Notes: generated by a model from the sequence alone, not told the origin. Counted from the first letter of the stretch, positions 21,097 to 40,589 are shown. The stretch: DNA of 40,589 bases from Eubacteriales bacterium (GCA_045533845.1 JAZSIN010000028.1:1-40589), one strand, 5' to 3'. A program made the numbers and translations.

Positions 21097-21165
21097 TTAT
21101 GATATCCTCCTTACCGCCGTACGTTGCGTCCTGGGAAATTCGTATTCCCCGTCCATTGTGCGACT

Positions 21166-21195: not shown

Positions 21196-21304
21196 GAGCT
21201 TTTGAACTTTTTTACGAAAAATTCCCCATTTTCTCTCGAAAATTTAGTGAATATTTCTTCTTCCGTGCTTTTTTGATCGTTTTATCACGACCGGACGCCG
21301 AAGA

Positions 21305-23098
21305 TTACGAGTCGATCGGCTCGAAATCGGAAGCGCCGTGCTTGCAAAGCGGACAGACAAAATCTTCGGGAAGCGGCTCTCCCTCGTAGACATAGCCGCA
21401 GATCTTGCAGACGTATCCCTTCCGTCCCTCGGTCTCGGGACGGGGCTTGACGTTCTCGTGATAGTAGGCGTACGTCATCGTTTCGGCGTTATTGATCACG
21501 CGGCTCTCCTCGACCGAACAGATAAACATTCCGTGGGTGTCGAGATCGACGTACTGCTCAACCTTAAGCGACATAAAGGAATTGATATAGCGCGGCAGAA
21601 AAACGAGACCGTTGTCCGAGCGGAGCGTCTCGTAATCCGCAAACTTATCCTCGCTTCTTCCGCTTCGGAAGCCAAACTGCCGGAACACGTGGAAGGGTGC
21701 ATCGACCGTAAGACAGTTAACGTTCATTTTTCCGCTTTGACGGATGATGTGATGCGAATAATTATCCTTGTTGATCGTAACGGCGATCCTGTTCGGCGCG
21801 TTCGTCACCTGCGTCACCGTATTTACGATCAGCCCGTTGTCCTTTTTTCCGTCATTCGAGGTGACGACGTAAAGACCGTATCCGATGTTAAACAGCGCCG
21901 TAGGGTCGTTCTTATTCGCCGTCGCACCCTGCTGTGCGAGATATTCCTGTGAAAGCTCACTTGCAAGTGCCGTAAGAGCCTCCTTGCTCTCGTCGCTGAG
22001 CGCAGAGAGAAGCTTCACACCCGTCTCGGCAAACGTAAGATTCTTACAGCCCTCCAGCATCCCCCGCATCACCTTTGCGGCAAGGGGTGCCCAGCTACCG
22101 TTTTCGATGAGGGCGACCGTTCTGTTCGAGAAATTCCGCTCCGTGAGATGCTCGATAAAATCGCGCATATAGGGGAAGATCCCCGCATTATACGTCGTGG
22201 TCGCAAGGACGAGCTTCGAGTAGCAGAAGGCGTCCGATACCGCCTCGGCAAGATCACAGCGTGCGAGATCGTGGACGATCACCTCAGGGCAGCCGTTTGC
22301 TCTCAGCTGATCCGCGAGCTGCAGCACCGCGCGGCGCGTGTTTCCGTACACCGACGTGTACGCGATTACGATGCCCTCGCGTTCGGGACGGTAGCTCGAC
22401 CAGATGTTGTAAAGGTTCAGATAATATCCGAGATTCTCGGAAAGCACGGGGCCGTGGAGGGGGCAGATCGTCCTGATGTCGAGCTTCGTCGCCTTCCGAA
22501 GAAGGCCCTGCACCTGTGCGCCGTATTTTCCGACGATGCCGATATAGTAGCGTCTCGCCTCGTCCGCCCAATCCTCCACCACGTCGAGGGCACCGAATTT
22601 TCCGAATCCGTCTGCCGAGAACAGGATCTTATCGGTGCTGTCGTAGGTCACGATGACCTCGGGCCAATGCACCATCGGGGCAGTCACAAAGGTGAGCTCG
22701 TGGCGTCCGAGCGAAAGGGTATCGCCCTCTCCGACGACAAGCTGTCTGTCCTCGAACGCGCTTCCGAAGAAGTTCTTCATCATCGCAAACGCCTTCGCGG
22801 AGGAAACGATCCTTGCGCCCGGATAGTTCTTCACAAAATTCACGATATTTGCCGAATGATCGGGCTCCATATGCTGAACCACAAGATAATCGGGCTGTCT
22901 GCCGTCAAGGGCATCGCGGATGTTATCGAGCCACTCGTGCGTAAAGCGCTGATCGACCGTGTCGAATATCGCGATCTTTTCGTCGATGATCGCGTAAGAA
23001 TTATACGAGATCCCGTTCGGGACTGCGTACTGACCCTCAAAAAGATCGATCGCGTGATCGTTCACGCCAATATATTTCACATCATTTGTAATATACAC
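21305..23098 (-). CDS. multidomain flavodiiron protein (metallo-beta-lactamase-like diiron, flavodoxin-like, flavin-reductase-like and rubredoxin modules)
   Basis: 597 aa with a GTG start and an AGGAGG RBS. The diiron motif is [10 protein letters not shown]. The flavodoxin-like part starts [14 protein letters not shown]. The flavin-reductase-like part includes [24 protein letters not shown]. The C-terminal rubredoxin reads [13 protein letters not shown]...FVCPLCKHG. Confidence 0.88.
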
Positions 23099-25018: not shown

Positions 25019-27331
25019 TTGAATTTCCCGATCCTGAAGTATAATCGAACCCGTGCCCGACTGATTGCGGTCACGGTCATTTGTCTCGTCGCGGCTCTTG
25101 CCTTCGAGCTTCTTTTTGCGAATTTTAATCTCTTTTTCCGTTTTGATAAGACGAACGAGGAGCGCGCGCTCCTCCCCTATCACAGCGGCGCGTTTGCGAA
25201 AGAGGACGGGCGTTTCGTTTTACCTCCGTCGAACTCGGGCACGGGCGTCCTCTATTTTGAGAACGTTCCGGGCGGGATCTCGTCGATCACCTTTGACATC
25301 CGCTACACCGACAAGTCCGTGAAGGACATCCTTCCCGCGCCGAGCGTCACCGTCACGGCGACCGATCCGCGCACGACCTGGTCGGGCGGCGGCTTTATCA
25401 CCGTTATAACCGAAACCTTCGCAGTAGGAGAAAACGGACGCTACGAATCGGTAGCCCTGTATCCGTCGATCGTAAACGACGCGAGCGGGGATCTGCGTCT
25501 GTCCTTCTCGAACCTCAAGGGCATCGTCGAGCTGCAAAACGTAAGGATCAACGTTCCACCCGCATTCTCGTTCTCCCTTCTCCGCTTTGCGGTGGTTTTT
25601 CTCCTTCTTCTAACCCCTGCCTTCCTTTCGATCAGAGGGCTCTTCTTCGGCGTCTACGATCCGTCGAGCAGGGCGCACCGCTACGGCGTAAAAACCGCCG
25701 TACTCTTCACACTTCTCCTTTCTCTTTTCTTCGTATCGGCATTTCTGAATAAAAACGAGGCGATCCCCTACCCGCTTGAGGGTGCGGTGCGCTACTATCA
25801 GCCCTACGTTCAGCAGTTTGATGCGCTGATGAAGGGACAGCTTCACCTTGACGTGCCCGTCTCCGACGAGCTTCTCGCGCTTGAAAACCCCTACGATTAT
25901 CTTTCCCGCGTTGATGCCGATCCCCTCTGGGACCGCGCCTTTTTCGAAGGAAAATATTACTCGTATTTCGGAGTCACGCCCCTTCTCGTCGTCTACTTCC
26001 CCTATTATCTCCTGACGGGTGCGCTCCCGTCCGACGCCTTCGTCCTTTCGTTCTTTCTCTTCATCACGGCGGTCTTTATCCCGCTCTGCGTCTTGAAGTG
26101 GGTCGACCTGCACGAAAAGCGCCGTCTCCCACTCTCGGTCGTATACCTCGGTGCAATCACCGCCTTCGTCGGCTCAATGATGCTTCTGATCGCGCGCAGT
26201 GTGACGCCCTTCTATTATATTGCAACGCTTTCCGCAAACGCCTTCCTCTCGATCTTCCTTTACCTCATTCTGAAGGCGGTCGAATGCAAGCGGCTTCGTG
26301 ACCGCGCCATTCTGTACGCGCTTGCGGGTCTTGCCTATGCGCTCGTGCTCCATTCCCGTCTGAACGTCGCGCTTCTCGGTGCGTTTATCGTGATCCCCTA
26401 CCTCATCTTCCGCGTGCTGAAGCGGAGAGAGTCCGAGGACGCGGCAGAAGCGTCAGAGGACACGGTAGAAACGTCAGAGGGCACGGTAGAAACGTCAGAG
26501 GGCACGGCAGAAATCGAGGGCACGCGCCCCGGGCGGCGAGAAGCCGTCCCCTCGCGTCTTTTGAGATCTCTGTCGCGTCTCCGCTCGTTCTTCGCGCCCT
26601 TGCGGGAGCTTCTCATCTCTTCCCTTGCGCTCGGGCTTCCCGTGCTCGTCGGACTGATCGCACTTCTCTCGCTAAATCACCTGCGCTTCGGTTCGATCCT
26701 TGAGTTCGGAACCTCCTATCAACTGACTGTCAGCGACGTCCGCTACAATGTGGTCACCCTCAGCGATCTCTTCCCCGCAGTCTACCATTATTTCTTCCAG
26801 GATCTTGAAACGTCGGCATTCTTCCCCTTCTTCTCGATCGGGCGGGAGTCCTTGTCGGATTACGGTCGGTACGTCTATACCGACTCGAGCTTCGGACTCT
26901 TCTCACTCCCCCTCTTCTGTTCCCTTTTTGCCTCCCCCGCGCTCCTGTTCCTGAAGGACCGGACACGCTACGAAAAGCTATTGCTCATCTTTCTGATCCT
27001 TGGACTGTTCACGGTCGCCCTCTTCAACTTCTCGCTCGGCGGAGTCATCTTCCGCTACGTTGCCGATCTTACGCTTCTCGCGTCTCTCGGCTCGGTCTTC
27101 CTGTGCTTCGCGCTTCTCTCGGACGCACCGCCCGCCAAAGGGGACGGCATTGACGGGGGACTTTCTGCTGTAGACAGAACGAAAAAACGTGCTCTTACCG
27201 TAGCCGTTCTCCTTTTCTTCGTGGCTTCCTGTACGGTCGCGCTCCTGCTGTCGATCTCTTATAACGGAAATCTCACGAAATACGCGTCGGGAGTCTTTAT
27301 CTCGGTCAAGCGCTTCTTCTCTCACGGATAA
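25019..27331 (+). CDS. large polytopic membrane protein (possible GT-C/ArnT-like glycosyltransferase), TTG start
   Basis: 770 aa. The TTG start is preceded by GGAAGGAG at an 8-nt spacing. There are at least 12 hydrophobic segments, an extracytoplasmic segment after TM1, and the loop motif NPYDY...WDRAFFEGKYYSYFGVTP. The functional call is tentative. Confidence 0.55.
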   Translation: MNFPILKYNRTRARLIAVTVICLVAALAFELLFANFNLFFRFDKTNEERALLPYHSGAFAKEDGRFVLPPSNSGTGVLYFENVPGGISSITFDIRYTDKSVKDILPAPSVTVTATDPRTTWSGGGFITVITETFAVGENGRYESVALYPSIVNDASGDLRLSFSNLKGIVELQNVRINVPPAFSFSLLRFAVVFLLLLTPAFLSIRGLFFGVYDPSSRAHRYGVKTAVLFTLLLSLFFVSAFLNKNEAIPYPLEGAVRYYQPYVQQFDALMKGQLHLDVPVSDELLALENPYDYLSRVDADPLWDRAFFEGKYYSYFGVTPLLVVYFPYYLLTGALPSDAFVLSFFLFITAVFIPLCVLKWVDLHEKRRLPLSVVYLGAITAFVGSMMLLIARSVTPFYYIATLSANAFLSIFLYLILKAVECKRLRDRAILYALAGLAYALVLHSRLNVALLGAFIVIPYLIFRVLKRRESEDAAEASEDTVETSEGTVETSEGTAEIEGTRPGRREAVPSRLLRSLSRLRSFFAPLRELLISSLALGLPVLVGLIALLSLNHLRFGSILEFGTSYQLTVSDVRYNVVTLSDLFPAVYHYFFQDLETSAFFPFFSIGRESLSDYGRYVYTDSSFGLFSLPLFCSLFASPALLFLKDRTRYEKLLLIFLILGLFTVALFNFSLGGVIFRYVADLTLLASLGSVFLCFALLSDAPPAKGDGIDGGLSAVDRTKKRALTVAVLLFFVASCTVALLLSISYNGNLTKYASGVFISVKRFFSHG
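26444..26524 (+). repeat. in-frame 21-bp tandem repeat (about 3.9 units, encoding AEASEDT/VETSEGT/VETSEGT/AEIEGT)
   Basis: gcagaagcgtcagaggacacg / gtagaaacgtcagagggcacg / gtagaaacgtcagagggcacg / gcagaaatcgagggcacg. Units 2 and 3 are identical. Confidence 0.85.
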
Positions 27332-27740: not shown

Positions 27741-28463
27741 ATGGATACTATTCGTCTTCAAAAAAAGGGAAAAACACTCCTCGTCGCGCATCGCGGCTGC
27801 AGCGGACTCGAAAAGGAAAACACAATGGCTTCATTCATCGCGGCAGGAAATCGCTCCTACTACGGCATCGAGACCGACATTCACAGAACGAGGGACGGTA
27901 AATATATCGTCATTCACGACAGCTCGACTGCACGCGTGGCAGGAAAGGATCTCACGGTCGAGGAGACCGACTACGACGTACTCCGTTCGCTTCCCCTCTG
28001 CGACATCGCGGGAAATTTCGGCCGCATCGATCTCCGTATGCCCGATCTCTCCGAATATATCTCGGTCTGCAAGCATTACGGGAAATACGCGGTGCTTGAA
28101 CTCAAGAACGCCTTTGCGGAGGAGGATATCTACGAGATCTGCGCAATCATCGACGGGCTTGGCTATCTCGACAGAACGATCTTTATCTCCTTCTGCTTTG
28201 AAAATCTCGTTTTTCTCCGCAAAAAATATCCGACGCAGGCGGCACAGTTCCTCACGAAGAAATTCACGGACGATCTCCTCGACCGCCTCAAGGCGTATGG
28301 CCTCGACCTCGATATCCACTATAAGGCTCTTGACAGCGAAAGGATCGCGCTTTGCCACGAGAACGGCATTCTCGTCAACTGCTGGACGGTCAACGACATA
28401 GAAACAGCAGACAGGCTGATCTTGTACGGCATCGATTTTATCACGACGAACATTCTTGAGTGA
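27741..28463 (+). CDS. glycerophosphodiester phosphodiesterase family protein
   Basis: 240 aa. VAHRGCSGLEKENTMASF...GIETDIHRTRDGKYIVIHD is the GDPD catalytic signature (HRG...EN...E.D...HD). Confidence 0.88.
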   Translation: MDTIRLQKKGKTLLVAHRGCSGLEKENTMASFIAAGNRSYYGIETDIHRTRDGKYIVIHDSSTARVAGKDLTVEETDYDVLRSLPLCDIAGNFGRIDLRMPDLSEYISVCKHYGKYAVLELKNAFAEEDIYEICAIIDGLGYLDRTIFISFCFENLVFLRKKYPTQAAQFLTKKFTDDLLDRLKAYGLDLDIHYKALDSERIALCHENGILVNCWTVNDIETADRLILYGIDFITTNILE

Positions 28464-28548: not shown

Positions 28549-29664
28549 TCAGTTTGCAAGGCCGGAGCTTTCGATACCCTGTACGAGGAACTTCTGTCCC
28601 GCGCAGTAGAGGATCAGGAGCGGTGCAAGCACCATAAGTCCTGCCGTATTGTTGATGACCGTCTTCAGGTCGGGGTTCTCCGAAACGTCAAGAGACATCG
28701 TGATCGGGACCTGAATGACGTCGTCCATAAACAGACTCTTATTCGTCGGGTTGAAGGACTGCGTGTAGAAGTTATCCGTCCACTGCCAGCAGAATGCAAA
28801 GATGAAGACCGTGATCATCATCGGGATCGACAGAGGAAGAATGATCTGTAAGAAGGTACGGAAGGTACCCGAGCCGTCCATGTACGCCGACTCCTCGAGC
28901 TCATCCGGAACACCGTGGTAGAACTGACGAAGCATAAAGATATACAGGCCGTTCTTGAACGCGAGGCCGGTGAGGGAGAGGAGATAGATCGGAATATCGG
29001 TTCCGAGGAGGTTGATGCCGTTCTTCGTAAACATCTGGAAGGCCTCGGAGTCGGGGAAGATATCGATCATCTCGAAGAAGCTGTTGTTGATCGTCGTGAT
29101 GCCGAACAGGTTGATGCCGCCTCCGTTCAGGAACTGGAAGATCCCCAGCACGTCGAAGGAGGAGAAGTTGATGTACATCGAGCTGTACAGCGTCTGGTGC
29201 GGCACGATCATCGTGAAGATAACAGCCATAAAGACGAGCTTATTACCCTTGAACTTGAACTTCGCAAGTCCGTATCCGATCAGACAGCAGATGAAGACCT
29301 GGATCAGCGCCGTGCTTGCTGAAAGGATAAAGGTATTGACGAAGGCCTCAAGGTAGCCGTTCTGCATCCAGACTTCCTTATAGATCCTGACGTTCCAATG
29401 CTTCGGGATCAGCATAACCGTGGGGTCTGCCAGGTCGTCGAGGCTCATGAAGGATCTCATCAGCATCGTAAGGAAGGGGGAAAGGATTACGTACGTAATA
29501 CCGATCAGAAGGACGAGACGGAAGATAAACCATACGACCTTCTTCAGGAAGAAAAGGCTGAGGAATTTCGACATCAGACGCTCTTTCAGAGGCGTTCTGT
29601 CGAATTCAATACGAATCTTATTTTTCGTTTCCTTTTTTACCTTAGGCATGGATTCTTGATTCAT
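28549..29664 (-). CDS. carbohydrate ABC transporter permease (enlarged, 371 aa; last gene of the operon)
   Basis: The EAA loop reads EESAYMDGSGTFRTFLQIILPLSIP. There are six or more TM segments, a basic ~35-aa N-terminal extension, and an enlarged extracytoplasmic loop. RBS GGAAAGGAGG. Confidence 0.88.
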   Translation of the reverse strand: MNQESMPKVKKETKNKIRIEFDRTPLKERLMSKFLSLFFLKKVVWFIFRLVLLIGITYVILSPFLTMLMRSFMSLDDLADPTVMLIPKHWNVRIYKEVWMQNGYLEAFVNTFILSASTALIQVFICCLIGYGLAKFKFKGNKLVFMAVIFTMIVPHQTLYSSMYINFSSFDVLGIFQFLNGGGINLFGITTINNSFFEMIDIFPDSEAFQMFTKNGINLLGTDIPIYLLSLTGLAFKNGLYIFMLRQFYHGVPDELEESAYMDGSGTFRTFLQIILPLSIPMMITVFIFAFCWQWTDNFYTQSFNPTNKSLFMDDVIQVPITMSLDVSENPDLKTVINNTAGLMVLAPLLILYCAGQKFLVQGIESSGLAN

Positions 29665-29682: not shown

Positions 29683-30648
29683 TTAAGCATCCTTCTTCTG
29701 ATAGAAGACGAAGCCGCTAAGCAGAAGTGCTACGATTCCGATGATACCGATAACGATCGATACGTAGATCCAGCCCATTGCTGCGGATACACCGTCGGTC
29801 GGAAGCGCACTGTAATTCAGCACGTAATCCATGACGACGTTGTTGACTGTAAAGCTATCGATGACGGTATAGACCGCGTTAACGAGGATCATCGGCGAGA
29901 TCATAGGCAGGGTGATCTTCCAGAAGGTCTCCCAAGAGGTCGCACCGTCGATCTGACACGATTCGTAGATCGCGGGAGAGATCGACTGCAGACCGGTAAG
30001 GAAGATCAGGAACTGAACACCCGAGCGGCTGATGATCTCCTGAACGCTGTTGATCGCGCTGACGACGATGTCTACGAGCTGTTCGCCGATCTTCATGCTC
30101 GAGAAGAGCATCTGAAGGTCGAATGCGGATACCAGCTCGTTCGTCGCGTTCTCGCCCGAGCCGTCCGAGATACCGTCGGCACCGGGGTCGAAGTTCGGGT
30201 CGAGATTCTCAAGAATACCGACCGAAAGAACGACGGGGATGAAGAAGACTGCGCGGAAGAAGGTTCTTCCGACCATCTTCTGGTTCAGAATGACCGCCAT
30301 AAAGAGCGAGAAGATAACGATCATCGGGATATTCAGCGCAAGCGTCCTAAGACCCGTGATCAGAGTGGGAACGAAGTTTACGTCCTTAAACAGTGCTGCC
30401 TGATAGTTTTCGAATCCAACGAACGTGGATTCAAACACACCGTTTCCGAGAGGCTCGACCACACAGAAGGTGTAGGTGATCGAGTCAACGAGGATCGGCA
30501 GATAGATCAGGATAAAGCCAATGATGAACGGGGCTACGAACCACCATCCCGAGCGCGCCTTCCGGGCGTTCAGGGAAGAAGCCCTTTTCTTCTTCTTCCC
30601 CGCCTTCGGAGCAACAGTGGTATTTTGAAGATTCATTTCACTGGTCAT
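29683..30648 (-). CDS. sugar ABC transporter permease (MalF/LplB-like)
   Basis: 321 aa. The EAA loop reads YESCQIDGATSWETFWKITLPMISP. Its ATG overlaps the stop of the upstream 1572-aa gene by 11 nt. Confidence 0.88.
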   Translation of the reverse strand: MTSEMNLQNTTVAPKAGKKKKRASSLNARKARSGWWFVAPFIIGFILIYLPILVDSITYTFCVVEPLGNGVFESTFVGFENYQAALFKDVNFVPTLITGLRTLALNIPMIVIFSLFMAVILNQKMVGRTFFRAVFFIPVVLSVGILENLDPNFDPGADGISDGSGENATNELVSAFDLQMLFSSMKIGEQLVDIVVSAINSVQEIISRSGVQFLIFLTGLQSISPAIYESCQIDGATSWETFWKITLPMISPMILVNAVYTVIDSFTVNNVVMDYVLNYSALPTDGVSAAMGWIYVSIVIGIIGIVALLLSGFVFYQKKDA

Positions 30649-33600
30649 TGTCTTCTACCTCACTTTCCGCCGCAGGAATCTTCTGATAGCTCTGAGATTC
30701 CACGCGGTAAGAAACTCCGTCGATCTCCACCACGACTGCGTAGTTGCAGTAATTCAAGAGGAATCTGGTTCCGTTCGAATAGGTTACAACAACGATGCTG
30801 TTCTTATCAGCACTATACTTGTTATAAACCTCTTCCTCTTCCTCAAGGACCTCGTCCTCCTCCTTCTCTACGATCTCGTCGTAGCGGTAAAGGAGCTCGG
30901 TGAACTTGGGAGCAACGTCAAGCAGACGCTCATCCTCCTCTGCGAGGCTGTTGACCTCTTCGATCGCCGCGAGGTATCTCTTGACCTCATCAAGCGCGAT
31001 CGCCTTTTCGTATGCAGCCTCTGCAAGGGTGACGACCTTTTCGGCGTCATCGACGACTGCCTCGTAGTTTTCCTTGGTGTACTGAGCGTACGCCTCGGCA
31101 GCTGCGAGAGCGGCCTGACGCTCTATATAACCCTCCTCGCCCTCGGCAATGGGCTGCTTCTGCAGCGTCTCATAGACCGAAGCCGCGGTGTTCATTGCCA
31201 GTTCGAGAACGTTCTTGTGCTTCTGTGCATTCTTCGCGTAAGCGTTGATGCCGGTCGAGGAATCACTCGGAACGATCGCGTAGAGGCTAGAGAGCGTATC
31301 AAAGGTTGCGGAGAGTGCTTCAGCTGCCGCCGCAAGTGCGTTCAGCTGTGCCGCAGAGGGTGTCTCTGCGTTGAAGCAAGCTGCAAATGCCGACGAGAAG
31401 CCTACCGCCTGTTCAGTGAACTCGGGCGTGTTCTCGTAGAACGTAATGATCGTGTTCGTCGACTGAGGCGATGCCTCGAAGAGGTCGCCGAAGTAGCCGA
31501 ACTCGGTGTTGAGAAGAATCGCCGCGTTCATCAGAGGCGTGAGCGCTGCAGAGAGCTCTGCGGAGGTCGCCTTCTTTGCCTTGTAGCGCGTGTAGATCTC
31601 CTGGTAGGTCGTCCAACGCTCCGCGAAGGTGTTGTAACGCCCGTTGAAGCCGACCTGGTTCTTCTTATTTAAGTAGGAGTTGAAGATCTCTGCGTACTTC
31701 GGTTCCTCGGTCACAGCCTGAATACCAAGCGTATTGAGGATCTGATCGAGTGCCGCCTTTGCGGTGAGGTCGTTCTTTTCAAGACCGATCTCGTAGGCAC
31801 GGAGCACATTCTTCGTCTCGAACTTAACGGTAGGCTGTACGGTGAGATAACCGCACGCCGCGTAGAGATAGAACTGATATGCGCTGATCTCACAAACTGC
31901 GTTGCCCTTCGCGTCGGTCAGCGTTGCATTTCCGTTGACGGTGTACTCGTATGCGCCCTGTGCCATTTCATAGACACTCGGTGCGATCGAACCGATGGTT
32001 GCGACTGCCTCAGCCGTATCCTCGATCAGACCCCATGCGAGCTCACGGATATACTCCGAAACGCCGTCGGTGGTTGCGAGGATCTCGTAAGCTGCGATCG
32101 CATTCTCATATGCAGTACGAGCTGCAAGCTCGGAACTGTACGCCTGATGTGCGATGTAGTTGACCGAGCCGTTCTGTGCCTGGTCGAAGAACTTCTGAAG
32201 CTCTGCCGCAGCGGAGTTGAGGGATCGTGCCGCATCACCGAGGATGGAAGACGTGCCCGTAATCTCGTTCGCGCCGCAGTCGCCGCCGTTGTAGACCTTG
32301 ATGTAGTTCTGAACGGCCTTGTTGAAGTTCTGGATCGCCTCTCTAAGCTCGCCGCTCTTATATTCCCCGCCCTCGGTGTAACCGAGCTTCAGGATCATAG
32401 CGGTCTTATAGCCCTCGAGCTTCGAAATCTCTGCCTTTACGGCAGCGCTGTTGATGCGGATCAGCTGACGCGCATTCAGAATGGTCTGAATGTTTTCGAG
32501 TGCCTGAAGGTTCAATGCCTCGCGCTCTGCCTCGATCGACTCAAGGATCGCTGCGTCGAGGTCTCTGATCGCCTCGTCAAGATCGGGCACACGAAGTGCA
32601 TCAATGAATTCGTGGTTTACGATCGTTTCAAGCTGAACGTCCGAGAGGAGCGAATTCAGCTCGTTGTAAGTCGAAACGACGTCGTCGAACCAGATATCGT
32701 AGCGGATCGAATAGTACTGGCTGAGTCTCTGATGGTTCTTCAGCGTGGTCGTATTCTGATACGACAGGAGGAAGTTGATGGACGCGCCATTCTCGATCGC
32801 CTTCAGGAAGGCGTAGTTCAGGTTACCCTCCATATTGATGGGAGTGCCTGCGAACTGCACGTAGCCGTGGAGCACGATTCCCATGAACGGAACCGATGCG
32901 CTCGATCTGATGAAACGGCTCGAGTCGAGCGGAACGTCGAGAATGTAATCGACGTACTTCCAGGTATACGCGTTACCACCGCTCGTCATTACGTAATCGT
33001 AATTCTCGTCGAAGTAACGGAATGCCTTGATGGTATGCGACTTCGAGTCCTCGCGGTTGTACGGATCTTCCTCGTCAAAGTCCGAGTTAAGCTCAGAGCC
33101 CAGCGTTCCGACCGAGATCGAGGTCTTGTAGTCGGTATCCTTGAAGTGCTTCATGTAGTTCGTAGTCAGCTTCGTGTAGAAGTGCTCGTAATATGCCGGA
33201 GAGAGGCAGAGCTCGAAGTAGCTGACAAACGCCTGCTTCGTCGCAGAATATTCACGACGGCTGGTATAACGGTTATCGATACTCTTTACAACGTGCTTAC
33301 GAAGCGAGAGTCCATCGACCATACCCGTTTCGGATACGAAGACGAAATCGAAGTCCGGGAATACCTTATAGCCCTTCTCGTTTGCATCCTTGAGAAGCTC
33401 GTTAAAGCCCTTCTTGCCGCCGACTGCCTTTTCCCAATCGAGCTTATACGGAACGGTCGACGACATACCGCCGTTCGAGTAGCCGGTCAGCTTGAAGTTT
33501 ACATTCGTAATGCCGATGTTTGCAAGATCCGCGTACATCTTCGAAACGTCGTCAAACGAGGTGAGTGCGACGGTTACGTCAACGGGGATCGACATGATCT

Positions 33601-35356
33601 TCTGCGTCGTATCGACCGCACCGAAGGTGTTGATGTAAAGCGGGATATCCTCCTCGACGTCCTCCTCGGTAAGAGGCGTCAGGACCTCGATGGATTCGAG
33701 GTAATCGCGGTATGCCGAAGCCATACCCATGTAGGTGCACTCGTAGTAGTCGAAGGTCTGACCCTCGCCCATGTCGTGCTGGATCTGCTCTGCGACATCG
33801 TCGTCGGTCAGCATCACGTACTTAATGGTATAGTTTCCGGTATACTTTCTCGAGGAAACGACCTCCCACATAGCGCCACTGCTGTTCGACGTGGAGGAGA
33901 TTGCATCCTTCAGGTTGTAGGTGTCCTTCGGACGCGGGAAGTAGGTCATCTGGACCGAGTGATACTCGTGCGTCGTCTTACCGCCGTGCGAGCTGGTAAG
34001 CTTCGCCATCGAGTCACCCTCCGTGATGATCGCAACGAAGCCGCGATCCTGCTCATATTCACGGACCGTCTGGTCGGGAGCAAGCTTGGTCAGATGCTGC
34101 GTCTCGACGATACCGAATACGGGATAACGAATGGTTTCCTGGTGGGTTGCCGTAATGGTCTGGTACGCGTAGTCAACGCCGTATACCTGACCGCTGATGC
34201 TGGTCGAGGAAAGCTTACGCAGCTCCTCGAAATCAAACAGCGCACCCGATCCGTCCGGGAAGAAGGTATAGCCCTCGTTCGGGGACATACCCGATCCCAT
34301 ATAGGGGAGGACGGTGATGTTTTCGAGCGTGTAACGGGACTCGTCGAAGCGGAGACCGTTTGCGGGAAGCGTTACGCTCAGACCTTCACTACCGAGGATA
34401 TACTCGAGCGCCATCTTGAAGAGCGGAGGATTCTGCTCCTCGCCCTCGTATTCGGTGAGCTCGTGGTCATAATCCAGATCCTCGTAGGTGTACGAGGGAA
34501 TGTAGGTCTTGATAAGCATCTCGAGTGCCGCAAGCTGTACCGAGGTGATCTTTTCGTCGATGGCGTATACGTCCATCTTCTTTACGATCGGAAGCGTTGC
34601 GACCATCGAGTCGTAAATGACGTCGGTGTCGGCCATATCAAGGTCGTACAGCACGTACCACTTGATGACCTTATTGATCTTCAGCTTGCCGACCTCACCC
34701 TCGGACTTGAGGGCTTCCTCGATAACTGCCTTGATCTTGGTCTCGAAACGGGTTCTCTCGATCAGTCTCGGAACGAGCATCTTCGCTTCCTCTCGGCCGA
34801 TGGTATACTCGACACGGAGACCGTTCTTGATGTTCTTAACCTTGATCTGACCTCTCAGAGAGGTCTCCTCGAAGCTTGAGAAGGTCGTCGTAACACCGGT
34901 GGACTTATCGGTGTATTCGACGAGGATCTGGGACATCAGCTGGCTGAGCTGCTTACCCTTTGCCGTCGAGGCTCCAATGTTATAGGGGTTCGTAAAGAGG
35001 ATCTCCTCGGTGGTGAGGTTCTTACAAGCCACCTCGCCCGAGTACTCGTCGACGTAGAGCTGATAGCCGTTCTGCTGGAGACGAAGGTCCATCGTCGCGA
35101 GCTTCTCGGACGGCGTATCGAATACGTCAGCCTCAAGCCATTCAAGGTCCTTGTTTACGAAATAGTTTACGGTAGCATCGGCAGGATCCGCGCTACTGAT
35201 GGTGTAATAGGTATACGACACCTTCTCGGCAACCGTGCCGGAGGTGGGCGTATCCGTTGTTCCTGTGGACGCATCCGCCGCAGCGATCGTCACCGAGCAC
35301 GCACTGATCACAAACAATACGGCCAGGAACATTGATATTATTCTGCTGAATTTCAT
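30638..35356 (-). CDS. 1572-aa surface lipoprotein: DUF5696-like putative glycan-processing N-terminal part plus a long Ala-rich alpha-helical C-terminal region
   Basis: Signal peptide plus lipobox (MKFSRIISMFLAVLFVISAC). RBS GGAGGAAAGGG. Residues ~40-925 have a globular composition, with segments YPVFGIV...GFVAIITEGD, GITNVNFKLTGYSNGGM and VPFMGIVLHGY that I recall from DUF5696-type proteins. Residues ~930-1500 are Ala/Glu/Leu/Tyr-rich and predicted helical. The last ~55 aa are beta-like. Confidence 0.85.
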   Translation of the reverse strand: MKFSRIISMFLAVLFVISACSVTIAAADASTGTTDTPTSGTVAEKVSYTYYTISSADPADATVNYFVNKDLEWLEADVFDTPSEKLATMDLRLQQNGYQLYVDEYSGEVACKNLTTEEILFTNPYNIGASTAKGKQLSQLMSQILVEYTDKSTGVTTTFSSFEETSLRGQIKVKNIKNGLRVEYTIGREEAKMLVPRLIERTRFETKIKAVIEEALKSEGEVGKLKINKVIKWYVLYDLDMADTDVIYDSMVATLPIVKKMDVYAIDEKITSVQLAALEMLIKTYIPSYTYEDLDYDHELTEYEGEEQNPPLFKMALEYILGSEGLSVTLPANGLRFDESRYTLENITVLPYMGSGMSPNEGYTFFPDGSGALFDFEELRKLSSTSISGQVYGVDYAYQTITATHQETIRYPVFGIVETQHLTKLAPDQTVREYEQDRGFVAIITEGDSMAKLTSSHGGKTTHEYHSVQMTYFPRPKDTYNLKDAISSTSNSSGAMWEVVSSRKYTGNYTIKYVMLTDDDVAEQIQHDMGEGQTFDYYECTYMGMASAYRDYLESIEVLTPLTEEDVEEDIPLYINTFGAVDTTQKIMSIPVDVTVALTSFDDVSKMYADLANIGITNVNFKLTGYSNGGMSSTVPYKLDWEKAVGGKKGFNELLKDANEKGYKVFPDFDFVFVSETGMVDGLSLRKHVVKSIDNRYTSRREYSATKQAFVSYFELCLSPAYYEHFYTKLTTNYMKHFKDTDYKTSISVGTLGSELNSDFDEEDPYNREDSKSHTIKAFRYFDENYDYVMTSGGNAYTWKYVDYILDVPLDSSRFIRSSASVPFMGIVLHGYVQFAGTPINMEGNLNYAFLKAIENGASINFLLSYQNTTTLKNHQRLSQYYSIRYDIWFDDVVSTYNELNSLLSDVQLETIVNHEFIDALRVPDLDEAIRDLDAAILESIEAEREALNLQALENIQTILNARQLIRINSAAVKAEISKLEGYKTAMILKLGYTEGGEYKSGELREAIQNFNKAVQNYIKVYNGGDCGANEITGTSSILGDAARSLNSAAAELQKFFDQAQNGSVNYIAHQAYSSELAARTAYENAIAAYEILATTDGVSEYIRELAWGLIEDTAEAVATIGSIAPSVYEMAQGAYEYTVNGNATLTDAKGNAVCEISAYQFYLYAACGYLTVQPTVKFETKNVLRAYEIGLEKNDLTAKAALDQILNTLGIQAVTEEPKYAEIFNSYLNKKNQVGFNGRYNTFAERWTTYQEIYTRYKAKKATSAELSAALTPLMNAAILLNTEFGYFGDLFEASPQSTNTIITFYENTPEFTEQAVGFSSAFAACFNAETPSAAQLNALAAAAEALSATFDTLSSLYAIVPSDSSTGINAYAKNAQKHKNVLELAMNTAASVYETLQKQPIAEGEEGYIERQAALAAAEAYAQYTKENYEAVVDDAEKVVTLAEAAYEKAIALDEVKRYLAAIEEVNSLAEEDERLLDVAPKFTELLYRYDEIVEKEEDEVLEEEEEVYNKYSADKNSIVVVTYSNGTRFLLNYCNYAVVVEIDGVSYRVESQSYQKIPAAESEVEDNDQ

Positions 35357-35380
35357 AATATTTCCCTTTCCTCCGGTTTG

Positions 35381-37516
35381 TTACATACGATAGCTGACTT
35401 CGGTGATGATATTGGAAACAAGACCGATGACCTTACTGAGAAGCGTCGTGAACAGGAGCGCAATGAACATAATGAAGACCATTGCGGCAAGCGTTCCGAT
35501 GATCGTCAGAACGTTCTTTCCGAGCGAGTAATCGTGAATCGTCATGACGCCGAAGAAGAGCAGCATTCCGACCCAGATAAACGCGACGGTAATGAGCATA
35601 TTGATCATATCGATCTCTGCCTTCAGCGCTACATTCGAGAAAATCGTCGAAAGAACGATGAAGAGCGGAAGCGGTGCGAGCGAGTACGAGGTCGCAATGA
35701 AGATATCCTTCATATTACCCTCGCCCTCGAACAGTGTGGTAAGGCACCAGTTGCCGATGACGAACAGGGCGAGCGGGAGAAGAACACCCGTGATCTGTGC
35801 CATAAAGGACGAATAGGTCTCTCTCGGATTACTGATGTAGCCGGTTCCGATATTCTGATAGTAGAAAGCAAGGATCGTAATACCGATATAGACGAGTGAC
35901 GCCCGTATCGATCCGCGTTTTTCGTGCTTCATATCCCAGTATCCGTCGAACGGATGGAACATCGTATGGAAGCAGAAAAGCACTTCCTCCTTGAAGGTAC
36001 GCTTTCCGGCAGTGACTGCCGCCTTCGCGTTGACCTTGTTTGCGTACTTCATAACGACCACGAGGATCACGATCGCCGCAACCACGATAACGGGAAGCAG
36101 GAGGATCCAATCAGCGATCCACTGCTTACGGATCTCCTGATAGGATTTCGAGTAGTTCGAGGTATCGTATGCTGCTCTGAAATATGCGAGGGAGTCCTCA
36201 AATGCACCGTCACGGTACAGCGCGTTACCGATTCCGACGTATGCCGCGTCGAAGTTCGAGTTACGCTTCAGAATCTCCGTCCAGTCCGCGATCGCATCGT
36301 CGTAAAGCTGCGCGTTCTGGTTTTTGATCGCCTCGATCAGAATATCTCCGTACTCGGTTCTTTCGTACACCGTAATGGTTGCATTCGATTTGTCGAGCAC
36401 GAGGAAGGTATCACCCTGATAGACCACCGACGTGATACTCATAAGGCTACCGATCTGCTGACCGGTGTCGCCGAATGCGTACAGCAGGTTGCCGTTGAAA
36501 TCGTAGGTAAAGATTTTATTTCGTTTGGAGTCTGCGATCGTCCAGGTCTTTTCGGGACCGACCGCAACGTCGATGACGGTTGAGGGACCGCTGATCGCGT
36601 CAGCTGAGTGTGCTCTCGTCATATCGACTTCACCCGCCGGAGGCCAGAAGCCGTTACGCTTCATGATCTCATCGCCCTTTGCATTCAAAAGCTTTACGGG
36701 CGAGTACTTACCGCTGCTTGACTTACTGCGGATAAAGGACTGGACGTCCTCCTCCTTGATGTAAGACGTGGTCGCGTACACGAAGCCGTCGGGCGTGACT
36801 GCGATGTTGTTGTAGGAGACCGAGACGTTCAGAACGCTCTGCGATCTCTGCTCGTCGGTCTGGAAGCGACGGATCAGGATCTGCCAGAAGGAGAGCGAGA
36901 CCGCCTGTGCACCGATGAAGCCGGTAAAGGTACCGTCATCGGTCATAACGATGATACCTTGATAGGTATCACGCGATACGACGAAGAGTCTGTCGTACTT
37001 ATCGACCGCGATCGCAATCGGCGAGTAGATCGCATCCTCATCGAAAAGCGAGCTCTCGGGAGCGGGGATGACCGAGCGGAAGTTACCCTCGAGGTCGAAG
37101 GTGACGATTCTGCCCGCGTCGGTATCGCAGACGTAGATGGTATCCTCGGTGACGTAAAGTCCCTGAGGGGAGGAGAGCTCATCCGGAACGCCATCCTCGT
37201 TGACAAAGGTCTCGATCAGGAATTTTACCTTTCCATATCGGTCGTTTACAACGATTCGGTTGTTCGCTCTGTCCGCGATGTAGATGTTCATATCCGCATC
37301 GACGACGAGGTCGGTCGGTGCATTCATCGGCACCAAAAGTCCCATCGTATCCGAATCCATTACCTTGATCGGGGTATATGCATCCGGGGAATACAGCGGC
37401 GTGCCGCTGATCGAATACGTATAGGTCTGATACGGGGAAGCTGCGCTTGCGGGGACAATGAGCACGCCCGCCATCAGTACGACTGCAAACAGGAGCGCAA
37501 ATATTTTCTTTTTCAT
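35381..37516 (-). CDS. secreted NHL-repeat beta-propeller / TPR-like / Yip1-domain polytopic membrane fusion protein
   Basis: 711 aa with signal peptide MKKKIFALLFAVVLMAGVLIVPASA. NHL-type blades include IYIADRANNRIVV, IYVCDTDAGRIVTFD and LFVVSRD. A TPR-like segment reads YDDAIADWTEILKRNSNFDAAYVGIGNALYRDGAFEDSLAYF. A TM helix follows, then a 5-TM Yip1-like C-terminal domain. Confidence 0.85.
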   Translation of the reverse strand: MKKKIFALLFAVVLMAGVLIVPASAASPYQTYTYSISGTPLYSPDAYTPIKVMDSDTMGLLVPMNAPTDLVVDADMNIYIADRANNRIVVNDRYGKVKFLIETFVNEDGVPDELSSPQGLYVTEDTIYVCDTDAGRIVTFDLEGNFRSVIPAPESSLFDEDAIYSPIAIAVDKYDRLFVVSRDTYQGIIVMTDDGTFTGFIGAQAVSLSFWQILIRRFQTDEQRSQSVLNVSVSYNNIAVTPDGFVYATTSYIKEEDVQSFIRSKSSSGKYSPVKLLNAKGDEIMKRNGFWPPAGEVDMTRAHSADAISGPSTVIDVAVGPEKTWTIADSKRNKIFTYDFNGNLLYAFGDTGQQIGSLMSITSVVYQGDTFLVLDKSNATITVYERTEYGDILIEAIKNQNAQLYDDAIADWTEILKRNSNFDAAYVGIGNALYRDGAFEDSLAYFRAAYDTSNYSKSYQEIRKQWIADWILLLPVIVVAAIVILVVVMKYANKVNAKAAVTAGKRTFKEEVLFCFHTMFHPFDGYWDMKHEKRGSIRASLVYIGITILAFYYQNIGTGYISNPRETYSSFMAQITGVLLPLALFVIGNWCLTTLFEGEGNMKDIFIATSYSLAPLPLFIVLSTIFSNVALKAEIDMINMLITVAFIWVGMLLFFGVMTIHDYSLGKNVLTIIGTLAAMVFIMFIALLFTTLLSKVIGLVSNIITEVSYRM

Positions 37517-37535: not shown

Positions 37536-38408
37536 TTAGTCTTTCATACCCGAAGAGCCCATCGTTTCGATGATGTTCGACTGGGAGATGACGAATACCG
37601 CAATCGGCACGAGCATCATAATAACCGTGGATGCCGCGTGAGCACCTGCACGCTTGATACCGCCTGCCATGATCTGACCAATCGCGTAGTTGAACGACTT
37701 CAGCTGCTCGGAGTGGATGTAAGTCGAAGAGCCTCTGTTCCACAGATCCTCGAAGCAGTAGATGATCAGCGTGAGCCAAGCGGGCTTAACCATCGGCATC
37801 GCGATAATCCAGAAGGTACGGAGCTCACCCGCGCCGTCAAGACGGGCACTTTCAAGGACTGCATTCGTAACGTTGGTGTCCATGAACTGCTTCATCAGGT
37901 AAAGACCAAGCTTATAACCGAGAGCGGGGATGATCAGCGCCCAATAGGTATCGACCATGTGAAGCTTCGACATGATCATGAAGGACGTAATACCCGTAAC
38001 GGTAGAGTGGAACATCAGCGAGGTACGAACGAGCTTAAATGCAAATTTGCGACCCGGGAACTTGATCTTCGAGATCGCGTACGCTGCAAGAGACGCCGAG
38101 AAGAGGTTACCGAAGGTTCCTACGAGCGAGGTCAGTACGGTATTGAAGATGTAACGGGAAAACGGGACCCACGAGGTACTCATCAGAGTAAAGAGGTCGG
38201 TATAGTTTTTACCCGTAGGATTGATAACGTAGAATCGGGGCGGGAACATCCACAGCTCGTCAAGGGGCTTGAAGGACTGGATCACGACGTAGTACATCGG
38301 GAGGAACATGAATGCGCCCAGAATCACAAGGATTATCGAAATCATCGCGTCACCGCCGCGTGAACGGGCGAGGACGACTTTGTGTCTTCTAGTTCTTAAT
38401 TTTGCCAT
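37536..38408 (-). CDS. carbohydrate ABC transporter permease (MalG-like)
   Basis: 290 aa. The EAA loop reads LESARLDGAGELRTFWIIAMPMVKP. There is a 1-nt gap from the upstream permease gene. Confidence 0.9.
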   Translation of the reverse strand: MAKLRTRRHKVVLARSRGGDAMISIILVILGAFMFLPMYYVVIQSFKPLDELWMFPPRFYVINPTGKNYTDLFTLMSTSWVPFSRYIFNTVLTSLVGTFGNLFSASLAAYAISKIKFPGRKFAFKLVRTSLMFHSTVTGITSFMIMSKLHMVDTYWALIIPALGYKLGLYLMKQFMDTNVTNAVLESARLDGAGELRTFWIIAMPMVKPAWLTLIIYCFEDLWNRGSSTYIHSEQLKSFNYAIGQIMAGGIKRAGAHAASTVIMMLVPIAVFVISQSNIIETMGSSGMKD

Positions 38409-38409
38409 A

Positions 38410-39357
38410 TTATCTACCCACCTTAGAAATGACCTTCTTGACGAGCGCGTTCGCGCCGATCATGATAACGAACAGCACGACGGCAATGGTGGAAGAGTAT
38501 CCGATCTCAAATCGTTGTCCGCCGTAGTCCTCCAGATGGTGCATGATCGTATGCGCACAGTAGTTAACCGACGGGAAGCCGCAGAGTGCGGTAACGATTC
38601 CGCCAAAGCCGAAGGAGTTCGTGATTGCCATAATAGCACCGAACATCAGCTGCGGCTTCATCGTAGGAAGGGTGATGTACCAAAGCTCCTGCCAACGGTT
38701 CTTGACACCGTCGACGGCGCCCGCCTCGTAAAGCGAATGGTCGACGCCCTGAAGACCTGCGATAAACGAAAGAAACGCTGTACCGAGCGAGGTCCAAAGG
38801 GATACCACGATACAAAGGGGCATGACATAGTCCTCGTTCTCGAAGAACGCAATCGGTTCTCCGATCATACCCATATTGATCAGCGTCGCGTTGACCCATC
38901 CGTAGGAGTCACTCGAGAAGAGTGTACCCCAGATCAGGTAGACCTGACCTGCGATGGACGGTGCGTAGAAGATCAGCGTAACGAACGAACGGACGAGCGG
39001 TGAAAGCTCGTTGATAAACCATGCAACGAGGAAGGATATCAGATAGGACGCAGGACCTACGACCACTGCGAACATAAAGGTGTTTTTAACACAGATGAGA
39101 AAGATATCGTCGTCGAGGAAGAGACGGATATAGTTTTCAATACCCATCCAGGACGGAGTCTCAAGCAGGTTAAAGTCTGTAAAGCTGAAATAGATGGACA
39201 GCGCGACGGGAACGACGGTAAACAGGGTGAAAACGAGCATAAAGGGTGCGATCATTGCATAACCGACCTTATTGCGCTTCATTTCCTTCCAGATCCATTG
39301 AGCCTTCGTCATGTCCTTTCTGGAAACAGCTTTTTTCTGTTTCACTTTTGTAGGCAT
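38410..39357 (-). CDS. sugar ABC transporter permease (MalF-like)
   Basis: 315 aa. The EAA loop reads YEAGAVDGVKNRWQELWYITLPTMKP. RBS AAGGAG. Confidence 0.9.
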   Translation of the reverse strand: MPTKVKQKKAVSRKDMTKAQWIWKEMKRNKVGYAMIAPFMLVFTLFTVVPVALSIYFSFTDFNLLETPSWMGIENYIRLFLDDDIFLICVKNTFMFAVVVGPASYLISFLVAWFINELSPLVRSFVTLIFYAPSIAGQVYLIWGTLFSSDSYGWVNATLINMGMIGEPIAFFENEDYVMPLCIVVSLWTSLGTAFLSFIAGLQGVDHSLYEAGAVDGVKNRWQELWYITLPTMKPQLMFGAIMAITNSFGFGGIVTALCGFPSVNYCAHTIMHHLEDYGGQRFEIGYSSTIAVVLFVIMIGANALVKKVISKVGR

Positions 39358-39499: not shown

Positions 39500-40589
39500 T
39501 TATTTGTAAGTCTCGTAAATCTCAAGCGCCGTAGCGGCCTCATTGATATACTCAACGACTTCCTCGAACAGAGTCGCGTTTGCGGTCTTAAGGTCGGAAG
39601 CAAGGGCAAAGAGTGCGGCGTAGTCTTCTTGACTCTTGTAGAGAAGTCCGGTGTCTCCGGCTGCTCTTTCATAGAGGTCGTCATAGCTTGCATTCCAGGA
39701 GCCCGAGCTCTTAAGCTCTGCAAGGGCCTCCTTCGCCTGATCCATACGCTTTTCAGCGAGGGTCTGGTCGAGTGCAAGTGTTTCAAGGTCAAATTCCTCG
39801 CGCTTACGCGTGATCTCCTTATTGATCGTGATGATGTAGGAGAGGAGCTCCTCGGAGGGGTCTGCGGATTTGTTGTACGCTGCAAGGAATGCGAAGTTGG
39901 TGTATCTGCCGATGATGTACGATCCGGGATAGTTCGGGATCGATGCAAGGCTGTTGAACTGTGCCTGGAGCTGCTCAAGCTCGTCGGACGTCCAGGGCAT
40001 ATCCGCAAGCGCGTGGAGATTTGCGGTCGAGTGCTTTGCGGACGGACCGATGATCGCGCACATTTCCTCGGAGTAGGTCGACTGACATTCAGCACCGACG
40101 TGCCACTTCATAAACTGCCAAGCGTTGTACTCGTTCTTGCAGCCGACGATCATAACGATCGCGGAGCAGGAGGAAACTGCCACGTTGTTGATCACGGGGT
40201 TACCGTTTGCATCCATGATCTCATTTCCCTTCGCATCGGTCTCAATGATACCGGGAAGCGGGTAGAAGCTCCAGAGGCCCTCAATCTCGGTCGCGAAGAC
40301 CTTGAGGTGGTTGTAGGTTGCCGTGTAGCTTGCAAAGCCGATCGGCATCTCACCCGTTCTGAATCGGTTCGCGAAGTCGTACTTGTAGGGGAAGCCGTAC
40401 TGCGTGAACAGGTTACACATCATATCGAAGGACTTGAGCGCAATGTTGGAATCGAGGTTGATTCTCATTCCGTTATCGGCGAAAAGCTCGCCGCCCTTCT
40501 GATAGAGGAAGACCTTATAGTCGTTGTGCATACCGATCGCCATGTTGTTCGCCTGAAGCGTCGGGATCGCCGCAAGGACGTCGTCCCAC
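39500..40589 (-). CDS. extracellular solute-binding protein of a carbohydrate ABC transporter (5' end outside window), with a C-terminal helical extension
   Basis: The frame stays open to the window edge (...WDDVLAAIPTLQANNMAIGMHNDY...). SBP family-1-like text includes YKVFLYQKGGELF, LKVFATEIEGLWSFYPLPG and WQFMKWHV. The last ~100 aa are helical and Ala/Glu/Leu-rich. Confidence 0.88.
   Translation of the reverse strand, partial: WDDVLAAIPTLQANNMAIGMHNDYKVFLYQKGGELFADNGMRINLDSNIALKSFDMMCNLFTQYGFPYKYDFANRFRTGEMPIGFASYTATYNHLKVFATEIEGLWSFYPLPGIIETDAKGNEIMDANGNPVINNVAVSSCSAIVMIVGCKNEYNAWQFMKWHVGAECQSTYSEEMCAIIGPSAKHSTANLHALADMPWTSDELEQLQAQFNSLASIPNYPGSYIIGRYTNFAFLAAYNKSADPSEELLSYIITINKEITRKREEFDLETLALDQTLAEKRMDQAKEALAELKSSGSWNASYDDLYERAAGDTGLLYKSQEDYAALFALASDLKTANATLFEEVVEYINEAATALEIYETYK

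Follow-up and report, generated by a model that had tools for sequence, protein, structure and literature searches.

The closest described counterparts of the protein presented here are GH129 and GH129-like glycoside hydrolases (GH). In ZgGH129, a beta-sandwich is joined to a TIM barrel and an Ig-like C-terminal domain of 72 residues; the enzyme is a homodimer, Asp202 from the N-domain of one copy completing the active site of the other and the C-terminal strand being swapped (PMC5698469). The catalytic domains of GH129 and GH101 are similar, the GH101 barrel resembles the GH13 barrel, and NagBb has a GH101/GH13-like barrel with Ca2+-assisted sugar recognition (PMC8106489). The protein compared with them is a secreted DUF5696 protein of 1572 residues from an uncultured gut Clostridia bacterium, encoded on the minus strand of a stretch of 40,589 nucleotides (Eubacteriales bacterium, GCA_045533845.1 JAZSIN010000028.1:1-40589), the whole of which was analysed and is called the window below.

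In fold this protein resembles GH129 enzymes, and the chances seem about even that it is an extracellular alpha-glycosidase-like enzyme feeding a dedicated ATP-binding cassette (ABC) importer. Its gene belongs to a seven-gene cassette with the order solute-binding protein (SBP), two permeases, an NHL-TPR-Yip1 membrane protein, the DUF5696 protein and two further permeases, all on the minus strand. An original prediction, made from the sequence of the window, had described a lipoprotein in which a TIM-barrel-like and possibly glycan-active part of an uncharacterised family is followed by a helical stalk and a small C-terminal beta domain. Placed structurally beside GH129 and GH101, DUF5696 acquires a concrete hypothesis, that of an alpha-glycosidase perhaps acting on host or dietary glycans, and is possibly a candidate for a new CAZy family, found in Clostridia that are abundant in gut and rumen and uncultured. 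Three features appear to be new: where DUF5696 belongs structurally, the helical insertion of variable length, and the cassette of four permeases, NHL-TPR-Yip1 protein and giant SBP.

Family and predicted fold of the globular body

The gene and the parts of the globular body are the following.

30638..35356, minus strand: DUF5696-family gene, 1572 aa, ATG start (open reading frame (ORF) list and translation; Pfam PF18952)
34484..35221, minus strand: conserved N-terminal domain, residues 46-291, outside the Pfam model, strands and helices mixed (family alignments, homologue model)
33737..34483, minus strand: predicted beta-sandwich, residues ~292-540, with invariant D368 (PDGSG), D395 and D478 (homologue model, 265-sequence conservation)
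32642..33736, minus strand: predicted (beta/alpha)8 barrel, residues ~541-905 (model of window residues 540-1572, Foldseek)
32582..32641, minus strand: predicted post-barrel beta hairpin, residues ~906-925, ending in the conserved H..F....RVP (model strands 373-378 and 381-382)

The Pfam domain DUF5696 (PF18952) covers residues 292-918 with 449.3 bits against a cutoff of 25.6 (E 2.9e-134; profile positions 2-576 of 612), and 452.9 bits are reached when the domain is searched alone; judged by such sequence matches, the feature is far beyond chance. Relatives comprise 1289 database proteins at E <= 0.001 among the candidates scored, and 4175 matching clusters at 50% identity were obtained in an exhaustive search. 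No mention of DUF5696 or PF18952 was found in the searchable literature. Pfam searches at E <= 10 on three pieces of the protein gave only DUF5696 and no GH129 Pfam model, and an NCBIfam search gave no match. PDB searches by sequence, performed with the whole protein, a 120-sequence family profile and a 48-sequence catalytic-domain profile, yielded no solved-structure relative, and the NagBb and ZgGH129 chains in the PDB were unreached by phmmer or the family profiles even at E <= 10. Matches to interferon gamma, F-BAR and coiled coils were dismissed as spurious or compositional.

Two AlphaFold2 models were used to compare structures. The first represents the full-length homologue P0021 (1167 aa, 49% identical to the window protein; 120-sequence alignment) and reaches a mean predicted local distance difference test (pLDDT) of 86 and a predicted template modelling score (pTM) of 0.77, the second represents residues 540-1572 of the window protein (pLDDT 79, pTM 0.49). 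From the N-terminus onwards, the homologue model begins with a mixed domain, continues with a beta-sandwich of ~200 residues, a (beta/alpha)8 barrel and a hairpin, and ends with long helices, a disordered linker and a five-strand module. Compared by Foldseek with the PDB, it matched ZgGH129/DagB best (5opq, 8rzk; E 2e-23, template modelling (TM) score 0.65 on target), followed by NagBb (GH129, Bifidobacterium bifidum; E ~1e-17 to 1e-14, TM 0.63-0.69), GH36 alpha-galactosidases and GH31 (E ~1e-9 to 1e-7), GH66 (~1e-6) and GH13 (~1e-5). The barrel of the window protein matched NagBb best (E 4e-11), then ZgGH129, GH13 and GH101. The length of the Foldseek alignment (~887 columns against a 659-residue target) was dropped as a sign that the terminal module aligns with the Ig-like domain of GH129, since the same number would result if the alignment were extended at its N-terminal side. 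The window protein is best described as a Pfam DUF5696 member that is predicted to be GH129-like in fold (the three-domain fold is recovered in the homologue model with TM 0.64-0.69 on target) and that is not, by sequence, a CAZy GH129 member. The earlier notion of a TIM-barrel-like and possibly glycan-active protein of an uncharacterised family is borne out at the level of fold, GH129 and GH129-like enzymes being the top Foldseek matches. Among the motifs then quoted as TIM-barrel-like, GITNVNFKLTGYSNGGM (615-631) lies on predicted beta2 and KVFPDFDF (664-671) on beta3; VPFMGIVLHGY (822-832) is a short helix preceding a strand.

ZgGH129/DagB, the best structural match, shares with the window protein the order of beta-sandwich, TIM barrel and small C-terminal beta domain, although at 10-13% identity and without a sequence-level relationship. 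DagB lacks both the extra 250-residue N-terminal domain and the helical insertion of the window protein, and, predicted to be a periplasmic protein, comes from a marine Bacteroidetes carrageenan locus, whereas the DUF5696 protein belongs to an ABC cassette. NagBb, a gut-bacterial GH129 alpha-N-acetylgalactosaminidase (PDB 5wzn, 5wzp, 5wzq, 5wzr) and the top match of the window barrel at 13-14% identity, has chains of ~600-630 residues without a helical insertion, compared with 1572 aa in the window protein. The families GH36, GH31, GH13 and GH101, which act on alpha-linked sugars, likewise show a beta-sandwich and then a (beta/alpha)8 barrel (Foldseek E 1e-9 to 1e-5), but their structural scores are weaker than those of GH129, sequence similarity is absent, and the catalytic motifs typical of them were not recognised in the window protein. 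The hairpin at 906-925 is proposed to be the first part of the C-terminal beta domain: together, its two strands and the five strands of the terminal module are about the size of the Ig-like C-terminal domain in GH129-like enzymes, and the two elements may form one domain packed on the barrel.

Conservation was assessed in an alignment of 265 family members with core identities of at least 41%. Strictly or almost invariant polar residues are D368, D395 and D478 in the sandwich and R768, N795, H830, N841 and E855 in the barrel. Barrel motifs comprise NVNFKL (beta2), KVFPDFDF (beta3), SDFDEED (loop after beta4), R768, N795, H830 and N841, and the conserved polar and acidic residues track the barrel strands (D668/D670, D759/D761, R768, D770, N795, D803, D811, H830, N841). 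The acidic positions of the barrel are occupied as follows (n=265).

D668, after beta3: 237 Asp, 26 Glu
D670, after beta3: 237 Asp, 18 Glu, 9 Asn
D759, SDFDEED loop after beta4: 250 Asp, 10 Asn, 3 Ser
D761, SDFDEED loop after beta4: 245 Asp, 14 Asn
D770, after beta4: 248 Asp, 11 Glu
D803, near beta6: 239 Asp
D807, near beta6: 135 Asp, 94 Asn
D811, near beta6: 231 Asp

D759, D761 and D770, the candidate catalytic carboxylates of the barrel, are each 92-94% Asp, and D770 is Asp or Glu in 98%. The nucleophile and acid/base are D486/E517 in ZgGH129 and D435/E478 in NagBb. In ZgGH129/DagB the essential acids come from the N-terminal domain and the barrel (PMC5698469), to which the three invariant sandwich aspartates of the window protein (D368, D395, D478) can be compared; they may parallel the essential Asp202 of ZgGH129. 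By a similar analogy, the acidic SDFDEED loop could play a metal-binding role like that of the Ca2+ site of NagBb.

The DUF5696 protein would accordingly be pictured as a secreted, enzyme-like protein of the cell surface, whose last three body domains follow the plan of GH129 and GH129-like retaining alpha-glycosidases. It may cleave, or possibly transfer, an alpha-linked sugar of an extracellular glycan near the membrane, and the released product would be captured by the giant SBP of the cassette and imported via two MalF/MalG-type permease pairs, with an ATPase encoded elsewhere.

Several observations weigh against such an enzyme. Identity to the structural matches is 10-14% throughout, and no link to GH129 was found by sequence or profile search. 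Among the 265 sequences no barrel carboxylate is strictly invariant and no catalytic pair is assignable from conservation; the residue after beta5, where GH13-type barrels carry their acid/base, is an invariant Asn (N795). That the terminal module packs on the body is a supposition, and the pTM of the window model is only 0.49. No partner of the arm was identified. The idea that SBP length tracks arm length was dropped, the lengths of the SBP (1063-1288 aa) and of the DUF5696 protein (1175-2016 aa) giving a Spearman coefficient of 0.34, which is weak and confounded by phylogeny. Homology between the SBP tail and the arm was dropped as well, no sequence similarity being detected, and of the earlier remark that the arm mirrors the helical tail of the SBP only the composition stands. 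Finally, the cassette is strictly conserved among housekeeping genes, which is atypical for a niche glycan-utilisation locus.

The imperfect conservation of the barrel keeps alive a non-catalytic reading, which is unlikely, if by no means negligible. The protein would then be a glycosidase-like ectodomain acting as a ligand-binding or structural accessory subunit of a complex of the permeases and the NHL-TPR-Yip1 protein, comparable to rBAT of the SLC7 transporters, and the arm would be an interaction element. The rBAT heavy chain is eukaryotic, GH13-derived, single-pass anchored and non-catalytic, and its glycosidase-fold ectodomain is associated with a membrane transporter; the analogy to the DUF5696 protein is a functional one only. 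Such a role fits the missing invariant carboxylate, the Asn found at D759, D761 and D807 in some members and the invariant Asn after beta5, as well as the presence of rBAT ectodomains (6li9, 7nf7, 7nf6, 8wk6) among the Foldseek matches of the homologue model at E ~3e-5 to 6e-5. It also fits the location of the gene between permease genes, in fixed order and with a spacing of 11-21 nt, and the housekeeping rather than niche-specific look of the cassette. However, the whole acidic set is kept in the window protein and in most relatives (the commonest pattern is common to 90 of the 265 sequences), the best structural matches are active enzymes with scores far above those of rBAT, and many polar residues of the pocket are 97-100% conserved in the same alignment, which fits chemistry or at least specific sugar binding.

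Helical insertion, terminal module and anchoring

Beyond the barrel and at the N-terminus, the chain carries the following elements.

30917..32581, minus strand: helical arm, residues 926-1480 (555 residues) (AlphaFold2 model, composition, dN/dS, length variability)
30800..30916, minus strand: disordered acidic linker, residues 1481-1519, without regular secondary structure and including EKEEDEVLEEEEEVY (acidic stretch 1497-1511)
30671..30799, minus strand: C-terminal five-strand beta module, residues 1520-1562 (motif quoted earlier, 1520-1552), pLDDT ~92 in the window model
35276..35356, minus strand: signal peptide, residues 1-27, with a lipobox-like ISAC (Cys20) and a type-I-like cleavage site AAA/D (translation)
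35222..35275, minus strand: Thr/Ser/Gly-rich linker, residues 28-45 (translation)

The ORF, the acidic stretch and the terminal beta module of the original prediction are all borne out by the sequence. The modelled arm comprises ~15 helices, one beta hairpin (1143-1158) and four low-confidence loop segments. Its first helix (926-991) is, with 66 residues, the longest; others span 1003-1023, 1037-1095, 1101-1141 and 1410-1453, and about ten follow the hairpin, up to residue 1480. The linker falls below a pLDDT of 50 at positions 960-970 of the window model, and the terminal module reaches ~95 in the homologue model. Residues 926-1500 contain 16.9% Ala, 11.0% Glu, 9.0% Leu, 6.4% Tyr, 4.9% Gly and 1.7% Pro, compared with 5.3% Ala, 7.7% Glu, 5.9% Gly and 3.0% Pro in residues 40-925. 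The arm is thus Ala-rich as described, while its supposed poverty in Gly and Pro is only mild.

When residues 926-1572 were compared by BLAST with 120 homologues, the whole tail aligned only in the nine closest orthologues, and nearly all other homologues aligned over the last ~45 residues only, always at their extreme C-terminus. A hidden Markov model of the terminal module matched every complete gene from 80 species genomes, 0-20 residues from the end, and 145 of 147 representatives at 50% identity; the two without it, of 595 and 901 residues, belong to the shortest sequences of the set and are perhaps incomplete. The spacer, counted from the H..F....RVP motif that closes the catalytic part up to the terminal module, ranges from 16 to 1225 residues among the representatives, about a quarter of which have fewer than 100. 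Complete genes of the species genomes have spacers of 105-997 residues, in rough classes of ~105, 200-330, 415-510, 540-630 and 830-1000, and the 588 residues of the window protein are neither extreme nor typical. Read from these alignments, the protein in its minimal architecture passes from the catalytic domain straight into the terminal module, and the helices are inserted between the two with variable length. With this topology, the helices cannot tether the enzyme to an N-terminal anchor. A body fused to a stalk and a small C-terminal domain, as first envisaged, is therefore not the right description: the module is near-universal in the family and the helices are inserted before it. A coiled-coil stalk or rod does not hold up either, given ~15 helices broken by loops and a module that is present even with a 16-residue spacer. 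A helical insertion of 16 to more than 1200 residues in an otherwise conserved enzyme illustrates how one element can evolve freely within a fixed scaffold.

The first ~45 residues of the arm are conserved in the family consensus. No internal repeats in the arm and no similarity between arm length classes were found by BLAST. Searched against the database by itself, the arm retrieved a single fragment and not even the known orthologues; this outcome is uninformative and most likely reflects crowding of the scored set by compositionally similar candidates. Compared with the 80%-identical orthologue of locus L043, dN/dS was 0.14 for the arm, 0.09 for the DUF5696 core and 0.12 for the terminal module, values that are approximate, as dS is near saturation. 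The arm is under purifying selection and is not the disposable filler that had been considered as an alternative; in these comparisons it is constrained within the clade and remodelled between clades.

In the proposed enzyme, the arm would be inserted after the hairpin next to the barrel and before the remainder of the C-terminal beta domain; it would leave the body as the 66-residue helix, and the chain would come back to the body via the flexible acidic linker. With such an exit helix and return linker, the arm would protrude from the enzyme and not carry it. Its likeliest role may be to hold the enzyme in place, by docking to a membrane scaffold, by pairing two enzyme copies, or by both. 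This role is suggested because the base of the arm is conserved and the rest varies, because most family members have no lipid anchor and because the gene always adjoins that of the NHL-TPR-Yip1 protein.

The N-terminus of the window protein, MKFSRIISMFLAVLFVISAC, contains a canonical I-S-A-C lipobox, in agreement with the predicted lipoprotein; in the family this does not extend far. The lipobox Cys is confined to the closest orthologues, most of which have T, M or V at -1 (IGTC, ISMC, LSVC), and only 3 of 81 DUF5696 genes and ~11 of 65 cassette SBP genes match a permissive lipobox pattern. The N-terminal consensus of the family, '...LSAF...SA/EE', is a signal peptide with an AxA-type cleavage site, and such a site follows in all family N-termini compared. 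N-terminal residues 1-16 of the homologue model, which match the linker of the window protein, have a pLDDT below 50. Lipoprotein status would tentatively be regarded as uncertain in the window protein and as incorrect for the family at large. For a monoderm bacterium it is unusual that an SBP lacks a lipid anchor, and since most SBPs of the cassette have no lipobox, another way of tethering is plausible.

These data bear on the arrangement favoured by the original prediction, namely an N-terminal lipid anchor, a rigid wall-spanning helical stalk and a C-terminal beta domain that serves as a separate surface binding module. The canonical lipobox of the window protein, the very long predicted helices (66 residues correspond to ~100 Angstrom), the weak resemblance, at profile level, of the tail to elongated helical bundles (e.g. 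F-BAR, E 0.005) and the disordered linker that separates the terminal module from the arm would all suit it. It is nevertheless improbable in view of the scarcity of the lipobox among relatives and its altered -1 position in the closest orthologues. The short spacers imply that the terminal module behaves as part of the enzyme body, like the Ig-like domain of ZgGH129, and not as a distal module. Moreover, the arm varies from 16 to 1225 residues while the cassette stays constant, which is unexpected of a fixed wall-spanning ruler.

The seven-gene cassette

Besides the DUF5696 gene, the cassette in the window consists of the following genes.

39500..40589, minus strand: SBP, C-terminal 362 residues, the gene running off the end of the window (open frame, Pfam SBP_bac_8)
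38410-39357, minus strand: permease 1 (Pfam BPD_transp_1, EAA motif, synteny)
37536-38408, minus strand: permease 2 (Pfam BPD_transp_1, EAA motif, synteny)
35381..37516, minus strand: NHL-TPR-Yip1 membrane protein, 711 aa (Pfam NHL, TPR_16 and Yip1, translation, synteny)
29683..30648, minus strand: permease 3, MalF-like (Pfam BPD_transp_1, conserved position)
28549..29664, minus strand: permease 4, MalG-like (Pfam BPD_transp_1, EAA motif, synteny)

Relatives occur in 441 species-level genomes. In a scan of one genome per species 80 loci were kept, which belong to uncultured Clostridia (Eubacteriales, Oscillospiraceae), mostly from ruminant, horse and human gut samples. Of 82 loci, 65 show the full seven-gene order; contig ends truncate the remaining 17, and no locus is a true exception. 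The combination of proteins is as unusual for an ABC operon as originally remarked, but it is a fixed, conserved cassette and not a one-off. Searches of the literature for Yip1 or NHL together with ABC transporters returned nothing relevant, and the cassette is undescribed in searchable papers.

The cassette resembles Gram-positive CUT1-type importers in its SBP_bac_1/8 domain, its four BPD_transp_1 permeases and the absence of an ATPase gene. Permeases 1 and 2 are one MalF-like and one MalG-like protein, so that the single SBP is accompanied by two full MalF-like/MalG-like pairs. The EAA-loop pattern was matched in three of the four permeases (1, 2 and 4), and the loop of permease 3, ESCQIDGATSWETFWKITLP, contains a near-match, ESC..G...ITLP, which was read by eye and left unflagged by the motif search; as in a CUT1-type operon, an SBP is thus found together with MalF/MalG-like permeases bearing EAA loops. 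No ABC ATPase gene was found in the cassette in the window or in loci L001 and L002. The only ABC_tran protein in the window (18050-19654) has a tandem ABC_tran and ABC_tran_Xtn layout, which is presumably of the ABC-F type. In contrast to CUT1-type importers, the cassette has two permease pairs per SBP, an SBP of ~1060-1290 aa that mostly lacks a lipobox, and the NHL-TPR-Yip1 and GH-like proteins embedded between the permease pairs.

The SBP orthologue of L043 (1994-5638, 1214 aa) is composed of a beta-rich N-terminal extension of ~700 residues, an SBP_bac_1 domain and a helical tail; its N-terminal 700 residues gave no Pfam or PDB sequence match. The SBP ends in a tail of ~100 helical residues, which across 68 loci has kept its length and part of its sequence and which terminates in SYExYK. 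The gene of the 711-aa protein always directly precedes that of the DUF5696 protein. Made up of a signal peptide, an NHL beta-propeller, TPR and a C-terminal Yip1 multi-pass domain, the 711-aa protein may be the membrane scaffold of the system.

That the enzyme instead remodels or synthesises an envelope glycan, as a transglycosylase on the cell's own wall or a capsular polymer with permeases that recycle or export the units, has little probability: it would suit a cassette in fixed order in 441 species-level genomes adjoining housekeeping genes, the GH13 isomerases and synthases with transglycosylation among the structural neighbours and a LytR-CpsA-Psr gene elsewhere in the window, but the type-I importer permeases with EAA loops and the SBP point to uptake, the cassette has no glycosyltransferase or polymerase gene, and the LytR gene is ~27 kb away and unlinked. 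Readings beyond those set out in this text have, taken together, a smaller share still.

For the favoured reading, an alpha-glycosidase-like enzyme that supplies the importer, a wider and rather doubtful extension can be formulated. The seven genes might encode one unrecognised surface machine, made up of a GH129-like enzyme of a new GH family, an anchorless giant SBP and two permease pairs, with the NHL-TPR-Yip1 protein holding all of them. Helical extensions, namely the variable arm of the enzyme and the conserved SBP tail, would act as tethers that replace lipid anchors, the arm length would be tuned to the envelope of each lineage, and the whole would be a monoderm counterpart of the Bacteroidetes 'utilisome'. 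More generally, the invariant cassette suggests that monoderm bacteria assemble extracellular enzymes and binding proteins on their ABC importers in a way not recognised so far.

Start codon, gene overlap and neighbouring genes

Two short features delimit the DUF5696 gene.

35370..35374, minus strand: GGAGG ribosome-binding site, 13 nt 5' of the ATG at 35356 (read from the sequence)
30638..30648, minus strand: 11-nt overlap of the DUF5696 stop TGA (30638-30640) with the first codons of the next permease, ATGACCAGTGA

Because of this GGAGG, the start of the 1572-aa protein is favoured over that of the 1564-aa product on record (P0001). The 11-nt overlap, which had been taken to suggest stoichiometric co-production with the permease, is real in the window; it is restricted to the window and to L043, the sole locus of the window's clade, whereas elsewhere a gap of mostly 11-21 nt separates the DUF5696 stop from the first ATG of the next permease ORF.

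A 910-codon ORF runs antisense to the DUF5696 gene in the codon-aligned antisense frame (window 32147-34879, plus strand). As a gene it was rejected and regarded as a shadow ORF arising from codon bias: the frame is open because TTA, CTA and TCA together account for only three of the 1573 codons of the DUF5696 gene. Other large ORFs in the window are likewise overlapped by long antisense ORFs.

Convergent with the end of the cassette lies a GDPD (glycerophosphodiester phosphodiesterase) gene (window 27741-28463, plus strand), which is also found in L043, does not adjoin the cassette in L001 and is probably not part of the system. An ORF of 770 aa without Pfam or NCBIfam match is located at 25019-27331 of the window (plus strand); in L043, a 772-aa ORF without Pfam match (19070-21388) occupies the equivalent position beyond the GDPD gene. 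An unrelated fusion protein of 597 aa (window 21305-23098, minus strand) combines flavorubredoxin-like (flavodiiron and flavodoxin) and flavin-reductase parts with a C-terminal rubredoxin-like motif, as assigned by NCBIfam.

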